Shown: positions 29,381 to 34,782 of the stretch, piece after piece
Position numbering within the stretch: the stretch's first letter is position 1
Layout of the letters: each line of letters begins with the position of its first letter
Origin: Candidatus Oxydemutator sp.
GTDB taxonomy: Bacteria > Pseudomonadota > Gammaproteobacteria > Poriferisulfidales > Oxydemutatoraceae
Assembly (NCBI GenBank): GCA_965203445.1
Contig: OZ241883.1
Coordinates: forward strand, 864,001-928,000
Length of the DNA stretch: 64,000 nucleotides
Reading direction: 5' to 3'
Notes under the pieces: model-generated
What the model saw: the letters and a program-made list of their open reading frames with translations, nothing else
Told to the model about the DNA's origin: nothing
Database searches by the model: none
Translations under genes and position numbers: made by a program

Positions 29381-31423
29381 ATGCCGGAAGACGTCCCGTC
29401 CACTCGACCCGCGTCCCCGAGACTTTCGGCCACGTTCGCCGCGACGATGCTGGCCGTCGCCCTGCCCACGTTCATGGTCATGGTCACGGCCACGACGCAG
29501 GCGGCGGCGCAGGCGGCGGAGACGTCGGGAACCACGATACGGGCGCGCGTGTTTTTGCAGGGCGCGTACGACGGGGCCGGGCGCCCGATGAAGACCACGT
29601 ACCTGAAATACCTGCCGGCTGAACAGCCGTACGGCGGCGTGCCGTGGCGCGCGCCGGCAACCACCGTGCCGCGCGTTGCGACGAACGCGGACGGTTTCGG
29701 TCTGGCGGCGGTCACCGCGACGATAGTGGACTGGGTGCTGGTCGAGTTGCGCACCACGGCGCGCGGCGCCAGTGCCGACGCGGGTGCGGGCGCGGCACCG
29801 CTGGCCAGCCGCGCCGCCTTGCTGCTCAGCAACGGCGACGTCGTCGGCGTCGACACGAGCGCCTCGGCGCCCGCGGCGGTGGCGCGAACCGACGGCGTGC
29901 ATTTCGCCGCGGCGATAGACGACGCGCAAGACCTGTACGTGCTGATTCATCACCGCAACCACATGTCCATCATGTCGCCCGCTCCGGTGGCCGCCTGCGC
30001 CGACGACGGCGGCTATTGTATTGACTTCACGCGCGCGCAGTCTTACCGCAACGGGCAGTATGCGCTCCGCGGCGGGCGCGGTGAGCGCGGTGAGCGCGGC
30101 GGCCCATTCGCAATGTACGCGGGCGACACCAACCGCGACGGCGTGATTGACGACGCCGACCGGCGATCCATCCGCGCGCACAACCTGACGACCATCGGCG
30201 CCGACCACTACGACGAACCCGACGCCGCCGGGCGCTACGTCATAGACTCCGACCTCGACTTCGACGGCGACGTCCTTTCGGCGGACGGATTCTTCATCGT
30301 CGGTCGAGACGCCGTAAGAGGCGGGCTGTCGAGGCCTTCCAGCGACGTCGCAGGCTTGGCCGCCGAAGTCGAAATCTGCCGCAATCCGGCGGCCGCCTTC
30401 GCCACGACGCGCTCGGCGACGAACGAACACGGCGATTACTGGGTGGCCTACCGGTGCCGGGAAGTTTGCGACGACTGGCGCCAATGCCTGCAACGCAGCG
30501 GCTCCCGACAGGATCTGGCCTTTGTGGTGGATAACATGGGCGGGCGCCTCAGATTCTCGGTGGATCGCGGCGGCGACGAAGTGCTGTATTTGCAACGCGG
30601 CGTCGGCGGCATCTCATTCATGCCGTTTCTGCCCGACCAGATCGAGCGCGCATCGAGCGCGGGCGTCGTGATGGTGGCCTGGGAGTCGGGTTTCCACAGT
30701 TGGGGGTGGTTCACGCGCACGGCGCAGGCGGCGACGCGGGTGCCGCGCGTGACCAGGCGCATCGCCGCCATCATCGCCTGGGTGCACGAAAACCTGGCGG
30801 GCGACGCGCGGCTCGGCACGGTCGGTTGCAGCATGGGCGCGCAGGCGACCTTCGGCGCGGTCTATTGGCACGGGATAGACGAAGCGGTGGACTACCAGCT
30901 GTTCATCGGCGGCCCGGCGCTCTGGGACATCAACGCCGGATGCGGGCGGCGCACCTACGCCTCGGGCCATTGCGACCGCGACCCCGGCATCGCCTGCACC
31001 AGCGACGCGGATTGCCGCGCCCTCGGCGCGAACAGCCGCTGCGACAGGCTCGGCCCGATATACCGCCGCAACGTCTGGCTGTACGAACAAGTCGTCAACC
31101 ACGTCCACGCCACCACCGCCTGCGACGTCTCGCAAGCGCAAAGCCGCGCGCCGCTTGCGTCTTTTGACGAAAGCGGTTTCGCGTTCACCGACGGCGACTG
31201 GGATTTCGACCATCCGGTGGACTTTGCGATAGACCTGCAACACCGGCGCGGCGCCGACGGCGACGAGGATTGGGCGCTCAGCGACATGATGCGATCATTC
31301 AACGGCGTTACGTCGCAAGCCGGCCACGCCAAACGCTGGCTCACCAAAAGCAATGCCCGGCATTGCAACGCGGCCCACGACGGCCGCGCGCTCGACCTCA
31401 TCCGGGCATGGATGGGGCCGTAA
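29381..31423 (+). CDS. Secreted protein: dockerin/EF-hand-like N-terminal domain fused to an alpha/beta-hydrolase-like domain
   Basis: Hydrophobic leader; VFLQGAYD...VDWVLVELR...HRNH block; Ca-loop motifs GDTNRDGVIDDAD and SDLDFDGDVLSAD; nucleophile elbow GCSMG; Cys-rich insert. Confidence 0.6.
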   Translation: MPEDVPSTRPASPRLSATFAATMLAVALPTFMVMVTATTQAAAQAAETSGTTIRARVFLQGAYDGAGRPMKTTYLKYLPAEQPYGGVPWRAPATTVPRVATNADGFGLAAVTATIVDWVLVELRTTARGASADAGAGAAPLASRAALLLSNGDVVGVDTSASAPAAVARTDGVHFAAAIDDAQDLYVLIHHRNHMSIMSPAPVAACADDGGYCIDFTRAQSYRNGQYALRGGRGERGERGGPFAMYAGDTNRDGVIDDADRRSIRAHNLTTIGADHYDEPDAAGRYVIDSDLDFDGDVLSADGFFIVGRDAVRGGLSRPSSDVAGLAAEVEICRNPAAAFATTRSATNEHGDYWVAYRCREVCDDWRQCLQRSGSRQDLAFVVDNMGGRLRFSVDRGGDEVLYLQRGVGGISFMPFLPDQIERASSAGVVMVAWESGFHSWGWFTRTAQAATRVPRVTRRIAAIIAWVHENLAGDARLGTVGCSMGAQATFGAVYWHGIDEAVDYQLFIGGPALWDINAGCGRRTYASGHCDRDPGIACTSDADCRALGANSRCDRLGPIYRRNVWLYEQVVNHVHATTACDVSQAQSRAPLASFDESGFAFTDGDWDFDHPVDFAIDLQHRRGADGDEDWALSDMMRSFNGVTSQAGHAKRWLTKSNARHCNAAHDGRALDLIRAWMGP

Positions 31424-31600
31424 ATTCGGCCCACCCTCACCCAGAGGGAGAAGTTGTCCGCGGGCCCGTAATGTAACCCTCTCCCCAATTCTTGAAACAG
31501 GTGGGCTGATAAAACGGGTTTTAGAAATTCCCTGAACTCCAGTATGGGCGCCTGCCTCCGCTGCGATCGAACCACCTCGAAGTTATTGCAGTACAATAAT

Positions 31601-31780
31601 GGGAACTATATACGATTGTATGCAATCGTATCCATTTGACGTTTCACAGACCGTGCCCTGTCGGATAAAAGTTCCTTCAGGGTCTTACCGCCATCTCCAC
31701 GTCCGGCAGCCCCGTTCCCGGAGGCCTTCAAACTCATTACGACCTCACCCCGCTTCTTGATGTTCAGAGCAGCGTTCCAG
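31601..31780 (-). ncRNA. Putative omega-RNA scaffold overlapping tnpB 3' end
   Basis: TnpB omega-RNAs are known to overlap the ORF 3' end. A perfect 9-bp hairpin ATACGATTG-TATG-CAATCGTAT (31610-31631) is present only at this end. 5' boundary is a guess. Confidence 0.5.
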
Positions 31781-32874
31781 TCCGCATTATCCCGATGACC
31801 GCAATCAACACAAACAAATAACGATTGCGATACTCTGTTCTTCTTGTTTTTGCACTTGCACTTGTTGCACGTTATACTCGTGTACTGAGCAGGCACATAA
31901 TTAACTTGGGTCTTGTAACCCAAATACTGTTCCATCTTATACCAGTCAGTCTTCAGTATCCCTTTGTTCAGGCCCGACTTGGCCTTCACATTCCTGCCGG
32001 GGACGACAGCCGTGCCCTTGGCACTTCTTGTCATCCCCTTCGTATTTAAATCCTCCAGATGCACTACAGAGTATCTCTCCGATACTTCTTTGGATACATG
32101 ATGGCACCAGTTAACTCTCTTCTGTCTTATCTTCCTGCACGTTATCGCATGGGAATGCTTGGCCCTCAAGTATCTGTTGGATGGCTTCACCTTGTGCTTT
32201 CTGCTGCCACACTTCCGCCTCGCCATCATCCTCTGATAACGGCGACGACGCGCCTCTAATAAAGTAGTATCAGGCCCTCGATATACAATCCCATCCGAAC
32301 AAGTAATCTGACCCACATTCCTATCTATGCCCACTGAATAGTACTCCCGTTTAATCTCTTTCTGTTCCACGGCATAAACTACATACGCATACCAATTCCC
32401 GCATTCCCTTTTAACCGTGCCCGACACGGGCTTTGCATCCGGATATGGATTATGACCAAGCAACAGAAACTCGCCTATCTTGGCGATGTGCAAATGGCGT
32501 CCCCTTATTCGGAACAAGCCAGATACAAGAGGGAAACTCTCATGATGTACATACCTTGCATGAAACCTCGGCAGCCCGCCCTTCTTGTCATAGAACTTCT
32601 TGTATGCAATCTCTATGGGCTTCAAAGATGATTTCACTATGTTGGCCGAGTATTCCTGCAACCAAGGTTCGCAGTGGCGACGTAGCAAAGTGAATTGCTT
32701 GCCCAGCGTGTAATACCATGGCTTGCACCTTCCATACGCCAGATACTCGTCCCGTAACTTCCCCACAAAGTGGTTCCATACAAACCGACAAGCACCCGCC
32801 AATCCCGCCAACTTGCGGGCTTTGGCCTGCGTACCGGGATGCACTCTGTAGCGGATTGTTCTATGAACCTTCAT
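31606..32874 (-). CDS. tnpB: RNA-guided endonuclease TnpB
   Basis: N-terminal YRVHP...GACRFVWN; RuvC-I GIDRN, RuvC-II LEDL, zinc finger CNKC...CVDC, RuvC-III ADWNAALNI; stop TAG lies inside the TIR. Confidence 0.93.
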   Translation of the reverse strand: MKVHRTIRYRVHPGTQAKARKLAGLAGACRFVWNHFVGKLRDEYLAYGRCKPWYYTLGKQFTLLRRHCEPWLQEYSANIVKSSLKPIEIAYKKFYDKKGGLPRFHARYVHHESFPLVSGLFRIRGRHLHIAKIGEFLLLGHNPYPDAKPVSGTVKRECGNWYAYVVYAVEQKEIKREYYSVGIDRNVGQITCSDGIVYRGPDTTLLEARRRRYQRMMARRKCGSRKHKVKPSNRYLRAKHSHAITCRKIRQKRVNWCHHVSKEVSERYSVVHLEDLNTKGMTRSAKGTAVVPGRNVKAKSGLNKGILKTDWYKMEQYLGYKTQVNYVPAQYTSITCNKCKCKNKKNRVSQSLFVCVDCGHRDNADWNAALNIKKRGEVVMSLKASGNGAAGRGDGGKTLKELLSDRARSVKRQMDTIAYNRI

Positions 32875-32936
32875 TGATATTTCTATTTTAATTTGCTTGT
32901 CAAGAAATTATCATAAATTATTGGATTATCTGCATT

Positions 32937-34049
32937 TTATTTGCTTCTTTGCATACAATGGTATATAATTCCCACAATAATTCTACACGCTATCAGGCGA
33001 CCAGAACTTGTACGGGGCCACCACATTCTGGACAAATGGGGTAGTTGTTTTTGGATGGCTTGGCACGGGGTGATATTCCCCAGGCTCCGGTGCGGGCGCT
33101 CGCCGTTGTAGCGTTCCAGATACGTGAACAACGCATCGTTGAAGGCATACAAATCATCAAACAATCTGTCTTCCCGGTAGTCCACGAACTCCTCCTGCAC
33201 GGTTCTGTTGAAGCGCTCGCATAATGCGTTCATCTTCGGACAACGCGGGTAAGTGTAACAGTGTTCTATACCCGCACGCTTCAGGTATTCGTCGAACTCT
33301 CCCTGATACTCGCTGCCGTTGTCCGTCAGTACTTTCTCGATGCGCCCCGGAAACACTTCGCACACCAAGCGCATGAAACACGCCGCGTCGCGACTGCTGG
33401 CGCGACGACTGGCCAACGCCAACGCAAAGCGACTGCTGTGATCCGTCGCCGTGAAGATATGGCGGCGACTGTTGTTCACGAAGCGCACTATCGTATCAAC
33501 CGCCACGCAATGGCCTGCATGCCCGGCATGGAAGTCTTTGCCCAAGCGCGGGCGCGGTCGGCGCTTGAACTCCTTGCGCCGACCGCGACTGTCCAGGCGA
33601 ACCGCCACCTTGCGCATCTTGTCCGGGGCATCCGCTATCAGGCGGCCTATCGTGCGCTCCCCGGGACATCTCACCCCGCGCTCGGCGCACCACGCAACCA
33701 GCAGCACGTGAACCTTCTCCTTGCCTAAATTCGGGTGGCGCTCGCGCAAGCGTCTGATCTCTTGGACCACCGCCACCGGCCACCGCCGCACCCGCCTGTT
33801 CTTGGGCGCCTTGCTGACGTCGTGCAACCCACTGAGACCGCCTTCGCGGTGGCGCTTGCGCCACGCATACAGGGTGCTGCGCGAAACCCCGAAGGCGTCT
33901 TGGGTTGCAGGCAAGCCATGATTATCCCAGAATATCAGGGCGTCGTATTTGCGTTCGGCACTCGTTGCCATGATAGCCTCCATTCGGTTTGCATAGGAAG
34001 CTATTTTACGCAACCCTGGGACGCGGTAGCCGACGTGCTTTATTTGCAT
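32937..34049 (-). CDS. IS481-like DDE transposase (HTH + integrase core)
   Basis: GVSRSTLYAWRKR HTH; VAVDT, LTDNGSEY, CERFNRTVQEE; ORF reads through the IR, stop outside the element. Confidence 0.9.
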   Translation of the reverse strand: MQIKHVGYRVPGLRKIASYANRMEAIMATSAERKYDALIFWDNHGLPATQDAFGVSRSTLYAWRKRHREGGLSGLHDVSKAPKNRRVRRWPVAVVQEIRRLRERHPNLGKEKVHVLLVAWCAERGVRCPGERTIGRLIADAPDKMRKVAVRLDSRGRRKEFKRRPRPRLGKDFHAGHAGHCVAVDTIVRFVNNSRRHIFTATDHSSRFALALASRRASSRDAACFMRLVCEVFPGRIEKVLTDNGSEYQGEFDEYLKRAGIEHCYTYPRCPKMNALCERFNRTVQEEFVDYREDRLFDDLYAFNDALFTYLERYNGERPHRSLGNITPCQAIQKQLPHLSRMWWPRTSSGRLIACRIIVGIIYHCMQRSK

Positions 34050-34104
34050 GTCGGCTACCTTTCTGCGGCTAAGATATTGTCCAGAATGTTTCTGGCCCTA
34101 TACA
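33009..34104 (-). mobile_element. IS481-like insertion sequence (1,096 bp)
   Basis: TGT...ACA ends; IRs TGTACGGGGCCACCACATTCTGGACA and TGTATAGGGCCAGAAACATTCTGGACA; 5-bp TSD GAACT (33004-33008, 34105-34109). Confidence 0.9.
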
Positions 34105-34125
34105 GAACTGACTGGCAGAAAAATA

Positions 34126-34782
34126 ATGGCAAAATCAAAGCTTACCGTTGACGCACTCAAAACCGAAGCCGGGACATTTGCCGTGGCCGAGTCAACGCAC
34201 CATGAACCCAGCCTTTTCGGTGTAACCGACGGCAAGGCCATCGGCACGTATTTTGAGCACAAATTCCGCGGCCGTCTCCGCAAAAGATTTGACTTTGCAG
34301 AGGGGTCATCGGCCAAAGGAATTGACTTTCCAGGCCTTGGCGTGGACGTGAAAGTCACAAGCGTCAAACAACCTCAGTCCTCCTGCCCGTACGAGTCCGC
34401 CAGACAGAAAATATTCGGACTCGGCTACTCCATTCTGGTTTTTGCGTACGACAAGACGGAGGATCCGGCGACCCGGACCGGGCAACTGAACGTCCGACAC
34501 GCCATCTTCATCGAAAAAGAGCAGACGGCCGATTTTCAGACGACGACGGGCATTCGCAAGATACTCGAAAATCAAGGGAACAAGGATGACTTGCTCTCCT
34601 TTCTTCAGGAGCGCATGCTACCCGTCGACGAGATCGAGGCGCTCAGGATTGCCGACGACTTGCTGAAAACTCCTCCAAAAATCGGCTACCTGACCATATC
34701 CAATGCGTTGCAGTGGAGATTGCAGTATCGCCGCGTCATAGACGCCGCAGATGCCGCGCCCGGCGTAACCAGGCTCAAGTAA
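34126..34782 (+). CDS. Type II restriction endonuclease (NspV-like family, tentative)
   Basis: GVTDGKAIGTY...GIDFP...VDVKVTS (D-x-D-x-K) QPQSSCP; paired with downstream MTase; ATG 34126. Confidence 0.7.
   Translation: MAKSKLTVDALKTEAGTFAVAESTHHEPSLFGVTDGKAIGTYFEHKFRGRLRKRFDFAEGSSAKGIDFPGLGVDVKVTSVKQPQSSCPYESARQKIFGLGYSILVFAYDKTEDPATRTGQLNVRHAIFIEKEQTADFQTTTGIRKILENQGNKDDLLSFLQERMLPVDEIEALRIADDLLKTPPKIGYLTISNALQWRLQYRRVIDAADAAPGVTRLK

Follow-up and report, generated by a model that had tools for sequence, protein, structure and literature searches.

For a prokaryotic TnpB nuclease carried by a DDE transposon, which duplicates its target site and follows no fixed target motif, the source of the guide and of the target-adjacent motif (TAM) is a standing problem. 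This problem is raised by a locus in a 64,000-nucleotide (nt) stretch of a Candidatus Oxydemutator sp. genome (GenBank assembly GCA_965203445.1, contig OZ241883.1, positions 864,001 to 928,000), hereafter called the window. Here, a 1373-bp element at 31601-32973, delimited by sequence reading and repeat search, carries tnpB between terminal inverted repeats (TIRs) and 8-bp target-site duplications. We consider it likely that this element is a non-autonomous IS1595 carrier whose predicted omega-RNA runs through the TIR, takes its guide from the flank beginning with the duplication, and requires a purine at position -1, immediately 5' of the duplication.

The element is a discrete low-GC insert (GC content ~0.38-0.53, versus 0.63-0.72 in the left-hand gene). 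With ends named by the orientation of tnpB, its two 25-bp TIRs differ at 2 of 25 bases, and the outer 13 bp of the 3' TIR are common to 12 paralogues and to an autonomous IS1595 element. The tnpB stop codon, TAG (31606-31608), falls within the 3' TIR, 5 bp from the element end. On the tnpB strand the duplication reads ATTATTGT, the sequence past the element end is ATTATTGTACTGCAATAACT, and the 5' flank terminates in GCGTGTAGA. The 3' TIR is extended into a hairpin, S4, whose arms (31610-31618 and 31623-31631) are 100% complementary, and a repeat search found no equivalent partner for the 5' TIR. This 3'-only hairpin is found family-wide as the inner TIR plus an inverted copy just inside it, and the arm sequences vary between subfamilies. 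Among 43 distinct members, folding the terminal 55 nt on the tnpB-3' side gives a mean of -12.9 kcal/mol, compared to -6.9 for the other end read in the same way; the tnpB-3' end folds lower in 39 of the 43 (Wilcoxon p 2.6e-7), an asymmetry that exceeds chance. A first-pass annotation of this DNA had described the anatomy, the flanks past the element end and the perfect 9-bp hairpin at the tnpB-3' TIR alone, all of which proved correct, although it did not recognize the carrier as an IS1595-type non-autonomous element. It had also drawn attention to a palindromic target. The inverted repeat TTATTG-N5-CAATAA is indeed present at 31583-31599, but at the family level the mean best inverted-repeat arm was 3.7 versus 3.6 in shuffles, and arms of at least 6 occurred at 4/39 sites versus 3.6% of shuffles. 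Palindromy at that level does not go beyond chance; it was rejected as a family trait and is incidental.

The source genome is a single 2.38 Mb contig (63.6% GC) with 13 full-length tnpB copies, the window copy included, which share 56-87% amino acid (aa) identity with the window copy, as well as fragments. All 13 are bounded by TIRs beginning GGGAATTAT (at most 1 mismatch). The ends of the ISNwi1 subgroup follow the consensus ggnnatTAT (ISfinder). The 8-bp AT-rich duplication is intact in 8 copies and differs at 1-2 positions in 4, while the remaining copy lacks a matching one. This copy has good TIRs, lies ~4 kb from another copy and is flanked by the 8-mers ATATAATG and AAATATCC; it may be the product of recombination between copies. 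The 13-mer GGGAATTATATAC at the TIR terminus has 78 matches in the genome at up to 2 mismatches. Included in these are many solo copies, a 163-bp pair resembling a miniature inverted-repeat transposable element (MITE), and a derivative reduced by deletion to 786 bp, in which tnpB is truncated.

Elsewhere in the genome, one pair of these 13-mers delimits an intact autonomous element of 2616 bp that shares the TIR and is flanked by an 8-bp duplication of its own. Its 314-aa protein matches Zn_ribbon_IS1595 and DDE_Tnp_IS1595 (149 bits), scores 206 bits against NCBIfam transpos_IS1595, and is the sole full-length transposase of its kind in the genome. A passenger gene in the same element codes for a 436-aa fusion of an N6/N4 DNA methyltransferase with an HNH nuclease domain. 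Of 40 related genomes, 16 have the tnpB family and 24 the transposase, and autonomous elements with a matching TIR and duplication were resolved at 22 of 40 loci, one of them dubious. In these relatives, subfamilies of the tnpB element share their inner TIR with particular autonomous subfamilies. A more distant TnpB family (open frames of ~440-480 aa, 35-39% identity) is abundant in the same genomes.

IS1595 elements, which are relatives of eukaryotic Merlin, are described as having ends that start with GG, 8-bp duplications, and the Zn_ribbon_IS1595 and DDE_Tnp_IS1595 domains (PMC8101967). The window element likewise has GG-start TIRs and 8-bp duplications, and its autonomous partner has both domains. 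Unlike those elements, it has tnpB in place of a transposase, with no IS1595 transposase of its own, and one of its ends has an extra inverted copy of the inner TIR. An IS200/IS605 (IS1341-type) identity was rejected on account of the 25-bp TIRs, the 8-bp duplication and a score below the cut-off of the IS200_TnpB model; according to a 2026 review, IS200/IS605 elements have no TIRs, make no target duplication and end in subterminal hairpins (PMC13565253). Since it shares its ends with an element that encodes an IS1595 transposase and has 8-bp duplications, the window element is a non-autonomous IS1595-family element with tnpB and a predicted omega-RNA as cargo. The TIRs and 8-bp duplications are explained by this carriage. 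The element is probably moved in trans by the IS1595 DDE transposase, to judge from the shared ends and from duplications that differ among 65 insertion sites.

The cargo protein passes the NCBIfam guided_TnpB model (174.1 bits, cut-off 100) and scores above cut-off for Pfam Cas12f1-like_TNB (50.8 bits) and HTH_OrfB_IS605 (28.5 bits). Pfam OrfB_IS605 was under its cut-off (22.8 bits, cut-off 30.5), as were two narrower NCBIfam models, IS200_TnpB (135.9, cut-off 425) and IS607_TnpB (72.6, cut-off 350). Residues 10-387 align with the ISDra2 TnpB structures 8bf8 and 8h1j. The RuvC triad (D184, E274, D365) is intact and aligned to the acidic residues of ISDra2 TnpB, and the zinc-ribbon cysteines are aligned CxxC pairs at 336/339 and 355/358. 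By family model, intact triad and zinc ribbon the protein is a TnpB, for which RNA-guided cleavage is predicted. The region from RuvC-II to the zinc ribbon contains an insertion, AKGT..PG.NV..KSGLN, that is common to the window TnpB and the best-scoring solved chain (PDB 9j09/9udi) but is missing from ISDra2 TnpB.

The tnpB copies also bear on the suggestion that the family is a decaying or domesticated TnpB without any targeting role, its patterns being inherited noise. Some family members do have stop codons, and two such pseudogenized copies also break pseudoknot pairs (see below). This suggestion is almost certainly wrong, given the intact open reading frame (ORF) and catalytic triad in the window, the 13 full-length copies at different sites, most with intact duplications, and the 65 distinct insertion sites across many genomes.

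The last ~130 nt of the tnpB copies are conserved at the nucleotide level. RNAalifold on an alignment of 53 distinct 3' regions (alignment A1) predicted three helices, S1, S2 and S3, with 16 pairs, of which 9 show compensatory changes. Two pairs of S1 are altered on both sides in 17/53 sequences, and S3 has many compensatory changes. To these helices a pseudoknot was added by hand, joining the S1 loop to the six bases that end the TIR. With it, 96.8% of cells are paired, compared to 88.2% in shuffles (0/500 shuffles reached the observed value), and sliding the partners by 1-3 columns left 31-55% paired. A single-sequence fold of 31601-31740 gave a minimum free energy of -45.7 kcal/mol (z -2.28).

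The core motifs GGACGTGGAG...GAAGCGTCAA of this scaffold occur at least 81 times, in 80 loci of many phyla. Among the matches listed, 9/81 occurrences end in an IS1595-type TIR and 72/81 do not, 30 of these 72 having a GAGGATGTCAA-like terminus; a detectable TnpB homologue lies beside 48/81. Thus, the family resembles a canonical TnpB/omega-RNA module in which an IS1595 TIR has been used to rebuild the guide-proximal end. A scan with a 19-base pattern returned mostly chance matches in unrelated phyla, and there were 31 true family matches among the loci examined, which also took in 9 loci from an earlier scan. A complete scan of the species-representative genome collection with the scaffold motif gave 83 stretches. 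The motif was also found in records titled Rhodothermales, Rhodothermaceae and Bacteroidota and in several lineages of gammaproteobacterial metagenome-assembled genomes, which suggests cross-phylum transfer of the element family.

The pseudoknot decides where such an RNA would end. Its 5' strand is the S1 loop, GGGAAC, ~100 nt upstream of the scaffold end. In 118 distinct scaffolds, pairing extends to 6/6 positions in 96, 5/6 in 19 and 4/6 in 3, and the distance from loop to 3' end is 95-145 nt (median 108). The window copy has GGGAAC:GTTCCC, whereas its own 5' TIR retains the consensus GGGAAT. One lineage of a related genome has GGGACT:AGTCCC, which again is unlike that lineage's 5' TIR. The species-representative scan added GGGATT:AATCCC (5 scaffolds), GGGATT:AGTCCC (5) and, with a T:T mismatch, GGGATT:ATTCCC (8). 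Compensatory changes in the loop therefore track the 3' TIR and not the 5' TIR. In the ISDra2 structure a pseudoknot beside the guide joins positions -5 to -3 to positions -103 to -105 (Nakagawa et al. 2023, PMC10097598). Pseudoknot covariation and an ISDra2-like distance argue that the scaffold most likely ends at the TIR terminus, with the flank as the guide. Of the 118 scaffolds, 116 end in C, a pyrimidine adjoining the guide and a candidate 'self' mark.

The same features might instead be DNA-level transposition signals. The S1 loop has the sequence with which the TIR begins, six bases long, and might thus serve as a third site for the transposase, and the arms of the 3'-only hairpin consist of TIR sequence; the omega-RNA would then stop before the TIR or go unused, and a purine at -1 would reflect the choice of the transpososome. 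That account is distinctly improbable. Where the TIRs differ, the loop complements the 3' TIR and not the 5' TIR; S1-S3 covary as RNA helices; the loop distance agrees with the ISDra2 pseudoknot; and the core motifs occur mostly at loci without an IS1595-type TIR end (72/81 among the matches listed). In addition, autonomous elements show no -1 bias in either orientation, as described next. On computational grounds, then, a putative omega-RNA scaffold overlaps the 3' end of the gene and ends at the element boundary with a guide-adjacent pseudoknot.

If the scaffold ends at the TIR terminus, the guide would come from the flank and the TAM from the other flank of the empty site. Unique insertion sites were collected with duplications matching at up to 2 mismatches, giving 41, then 43 and finally 65 sites. 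Read on the tnpB strand, these 65 sites have G at -1 in 42 cases, A in 22, T in 1 and C in none. A purine is thus present at 64/65 sites; at the lone exception a run of T makes the register ambiguous. Autonomous IS1595 relatives have a purine at this position in 12/21, and in 8/21 when read in the opposite orientation (Fisher p 5.5e-6). At tnpB-element sites no bias is seen at position +9, immediately 3' of the duplication, so the -1 signal is orientation-specific. A guide that begins with the first duplicated base would put the 3'-most base of the TAM at -1; once the site is occupied, the C that closes the TIR stands there instead. The shortage of T at -3 suggested by the set of 41 sites faded at 65 (7/65 versus 4/21, not significant) and was dropped. 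In the window copy, a 16-nt version of the guide matches the genome at the window junction only, and no other genome match was found at up to 2 mismatches.

The register of the guide admits another arrangement, known from Fanzor, where according to the 2026 review (PMC13565253) the TAM takes in the 5' duplication and the scaffold takes in the 3' duplication. Applied here, the scaffold would include all or the first bases of the 3' duplication copy, the TAM would combine the -1 purine with the AT-rich bases that open the duplication, and the guide would begin within the duplication or beyond it. Positions 1-3 of the duplication are A/T-rich, with G at position 1 in only 1/65, and ISDra2 has one unpaired base between pseudoknot and guide (PMC10097598), both of which would suit such a register. 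We judge it rather unlikely, however. The AT-rich duplication is also present in autonomous elements without tnpB, so it is not TnpB-specific, and no position within the duplication is conserved enough at the 65 sites for a motif read by a protein. Near-identical copies lose identity exactly at the TIR terminus, and a TAM wholly within the duplication would mark the occupied site too. The data fit a relaxed TAM outside the duplication with a guide that would start at or near the first duplicated base, and the register may be off by one to a few bases.

The first-pass annotation had predicted that an omega-RNA runs through the TIR with a guide starting in the duplication, and had left two alternatives for the TAM. 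The covarying scaffold up to the terminus, the pseudoknot and the -1 purine speak for its prediction, within the register uncertainty just given. Of the two alternatives, a relaxed TAM in the GTAGA flank with a guide that includes the duplication is favored, and the other, with the duplication itself as the TAM, is the Fanzor arrangement (PMC13565253). Aligning the flanks of other copies, which it had proposed as a check, is what revealed the conserved purine next to the duplication. Its description of the coupling as unusual needs qualification, since TnpB in DDE/TIR transposons has already been published (PMC10691335).

From these observations we propose the following mechanism. The omega-RNA would overlap the 3' end of tnpB and continue to the last base of the 3' TIR. 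It would consist, in order, of S1 with its GGGAAC loop, S2 and S3, a conserved GAA(A/G)CGTCAA junction, S4, and the outer TIR. S4 would be formed by the inner TIR and its inverted copy just inside, and the last six bases of the outer TIR, GTTCCC, would pair with the S1 loop as the pseudoknot. The guide would be flanking DNA from the first duplicated base, or from within one or two bases of it (AUUAUUGUACUGCAAU...). At an unoccupied site the target would be preceded by the other flank, and the TnpB-specific need would be a purine at -1, the A of GTAGA in the window. At the occupied site, the C that ends the TIR would stand at -1 and would spare the element's own junction. TnpB would then cut empty sites, and insertions next to a purine would persist. 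A further step, which we put forward tentatively and hold to be possible rather than probable, is that the outer TIR has a triple role as transposase end, pseudoknot 3' strand and terminal-C 'self' mark, that the near-universal -1 purine is a footprint of selection, because the transposase itself has no such preference, and that TnpB nuclease activity measurably promotes retention or homing of a DDE transposon in bacteria.

Several points weigh against this mechanism. Most pseudoknot columns are nearly invariant, so that 'paired' partly reflects conservation; position 5 is mismatched in 14/118 scaffolds (T:T in 11); and the association test for the pseudoknot over the 118 scaffolds ignores relatedness. 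In addition, Gly-Asn in the tail of TnpB is encoded by the S1 loop, which places the loop under protein constraint as well. Support for the pseudoknot is modest. The single-sequence fold beats shuffles only modestly, S2 is weakly supported with variation that consists mostly of wobble changes, and a search of Rfam with window positions 31000-34500 gave no match at E up to 1. The inner TIR of the only autonomous element in the genome differs from that of the window copy. A one-base TAM is far shorter than the 5-nt TAM of ISDra2. The autonomous control is small (21), related sites are not independent, and the -1 bias could come from the transposition of asymmetric ends rather than from TnpB. Finally, a left-flank search of 20 relatives found no empty allele or orthologous site and picked out nothing but a short interspersed repeat. 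Contigs of two sequencing runs over 31200-33400 bridged both junctions without differences and had no joint that skips the element, although such contigs drop rare variants and are uninformative on empty alleles. A single contig joint, 31653 to 31781 (side of 23 nt), is consistent with shorter paralogues having cross-mapped.

In general terms, the carriage of TnpB by DDE/TIR transposons is not new. Altae-Tran et al. (2023, PNAS, PMC10691335) describe six DDE-associated TnpB branches (DDE-1 to DDE-6) with inverted terminal repeats, in which solo TnpB has the same ends and the tnpB 3' end lies at most 250 bp from the transposon end. As in those branches, the window TnpB lies between TIRs with its 3' end near the transposon end (the stop codon is 5 bp away), and the ends are common to DDE elements (here, to the autonomous element), which implies mobilization in trans. 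The section of that paper on the DDE branches presents no pseudoknot in a TIR and no TAM or flank analysis, unlike the present family. Its main text has 0 occurrences of 'IS1595' and names IS630 as the only family, and its supplements could list IS1595. In the 2026 review, the carriers listed are ISL2, IS630 and IS1031, and the rarity of the TnpB-DDE pairing is attributed, perhaps, to inflexible TAM recognition (PMC13565253). Our literature search found, by title or abstract, nothing on topic that pairs TnpB with IS1595. The literature searched likewise gave no description of a TIR terminus as a pseudoknot strand, of covariation that tracks the 3' TIR, or of a purine footprint outside the duplication.

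Compared to ISDra2 TnpB (PDB 8bf8/8ex9/8exa, 8h1j), the window protein is homologous over its full length, with the RuvC triad and zinc ribbon aligned. The predicted RNA shares with that of ISDra2 a scaffold over the 3' end of the gene, a pseudoknot spanning ~100 nt and a guide from the DNA just outside the element. ISDra2 differs in having hairpin ends without duplication where our family has TIRs and 8-bp duplications. In addition, the guide-adjacent pseudoknot strand is here the terminus of a transposase-type TIR, and the candidate TAM is one purine, not TTGAT, and is not the target motif of the transposase. The closest parallel in carriage is with Fanzor1 and Fanzor2, which are TnpB-type nucleases borne as cargo of DDE/TIR elements that make duplications, with an RNA through the terminal repeat (PMC13565253). 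In Fanzor, by the account of that review, the TAM includes the 5' duplication and the scaffold the 3' duplication, whereas the TnpB-specific flank signal here lies only outside the 8-bp duplication. Fanzor1 is described there as having no pseudoknot, which is retained in the window family.

If that further step is true, an insertion would last only at sites whose empty allele TnpB can cut. Should the flank bias indeed be selection, it would be natural evidence that TnpB benefits cut-and-paste-type elements too. The family offers a testable solution to the source of guide and TAM, namely a scaffold fused to the TIR via a pseudoknot, a guide starting in the duplication and a TAM of perhaps one purine, and provides natural variants by the dozen, each paired with an autonomous element that matches it. 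A TnpB with a nearly absent TAM would also be of interest to genome editing.

Table 1. Features of the tnpB element and its flanks, in window coordinates
Feature	Coordinates	Strand	Remarks
Predicted guide region	31581-31600	-	ATTATTGTACTGCAATAACT on tnpB strand; first 8 nt are the duplication; placed from the predicted scaffold end at 31601
Target-site duplication, tnpB-3' side	31593-31600		8 bp, ACAATAAT on + strand; identical 8 bp at 32974-32981
Pseudoknot 3' strand (predicted), GTTCCC	31601-31606	-	pairs 6/6 with GGGAAC at 31714-31719
3' TIR	31601-31625	- (tnpB strand)	from terminus inwards GGGAACTATATACGATTGTATGCAA; tnpB strand ends ...TATAGTTCCC
Minimal omega-RNA-like scaffold (predicted)	31601-31732	-	alignment A1; overlaps C-terminal coding region of tnpB
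tnpB	31606-32874	-	422 aa, intact; sole long ORF in the element
Hairpin S4	31610-31631	-	9-bp stem, 4-nt loop; 3' arm in TIR
Core motif GAAACGTCAA (family consensus GAAGCGTCAA)	31636-31645	-	ACGTC is the 3' arm of helix S2
Helix S3	31649-31695 (31695-31688 with 31654-31649)	-	inner stem 31682-31678 with 31660-31656; from RNAalifold and pair counts
Core motif GGACGTGGAG	31695-31704	-	GACGT is the 5' arm of helix S2
Hairpin S1	31709-31725 (31725-31721 with 31713-31709)	-	loop GGGAAC at 31719-31714
5' TIR	32949-32973	-	GGGAATTATATACCATTGTATGCAA on tnpB strand
Target-site duplication, tnpB-5' side	32974-32981		second copy of the same 8 bp
Position -1 of reconstructed empty site	32982	-	A on tnpB strand, last base of GTAGA; candidate TAM position

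Promoter and terminator scans were uninformative, with 3 promoter-like sites versus 2.3 expected and 2 terminator-like sites versus 1.3 expected. An outward TGGATA-18-TATAGT match in the 3' TIR does not keep its spacing across copies.

The tnpB element has a mobile neighbor. An IS481-like multi-copy element at ~33010-34098 lies 28 bp from it, with a contig depth of 3-7x that of the flanks and loose ends at 33009. Its ORF (32937-34049, - strand) has rve, rve_3 and HTH domain matches. This ORF has no stop codon in its own element and reads via the 28-bp spacer and the duplication into the 5' TIR of the tnpB element. On the other side, at ~31431-31490, is a ~55-bp interspersed repeat with ~20 copies in the genome at 77-96% identity. 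It looks like a repetitive extragenic palindrome or a MITE, and it also flanks other tnpB copies.

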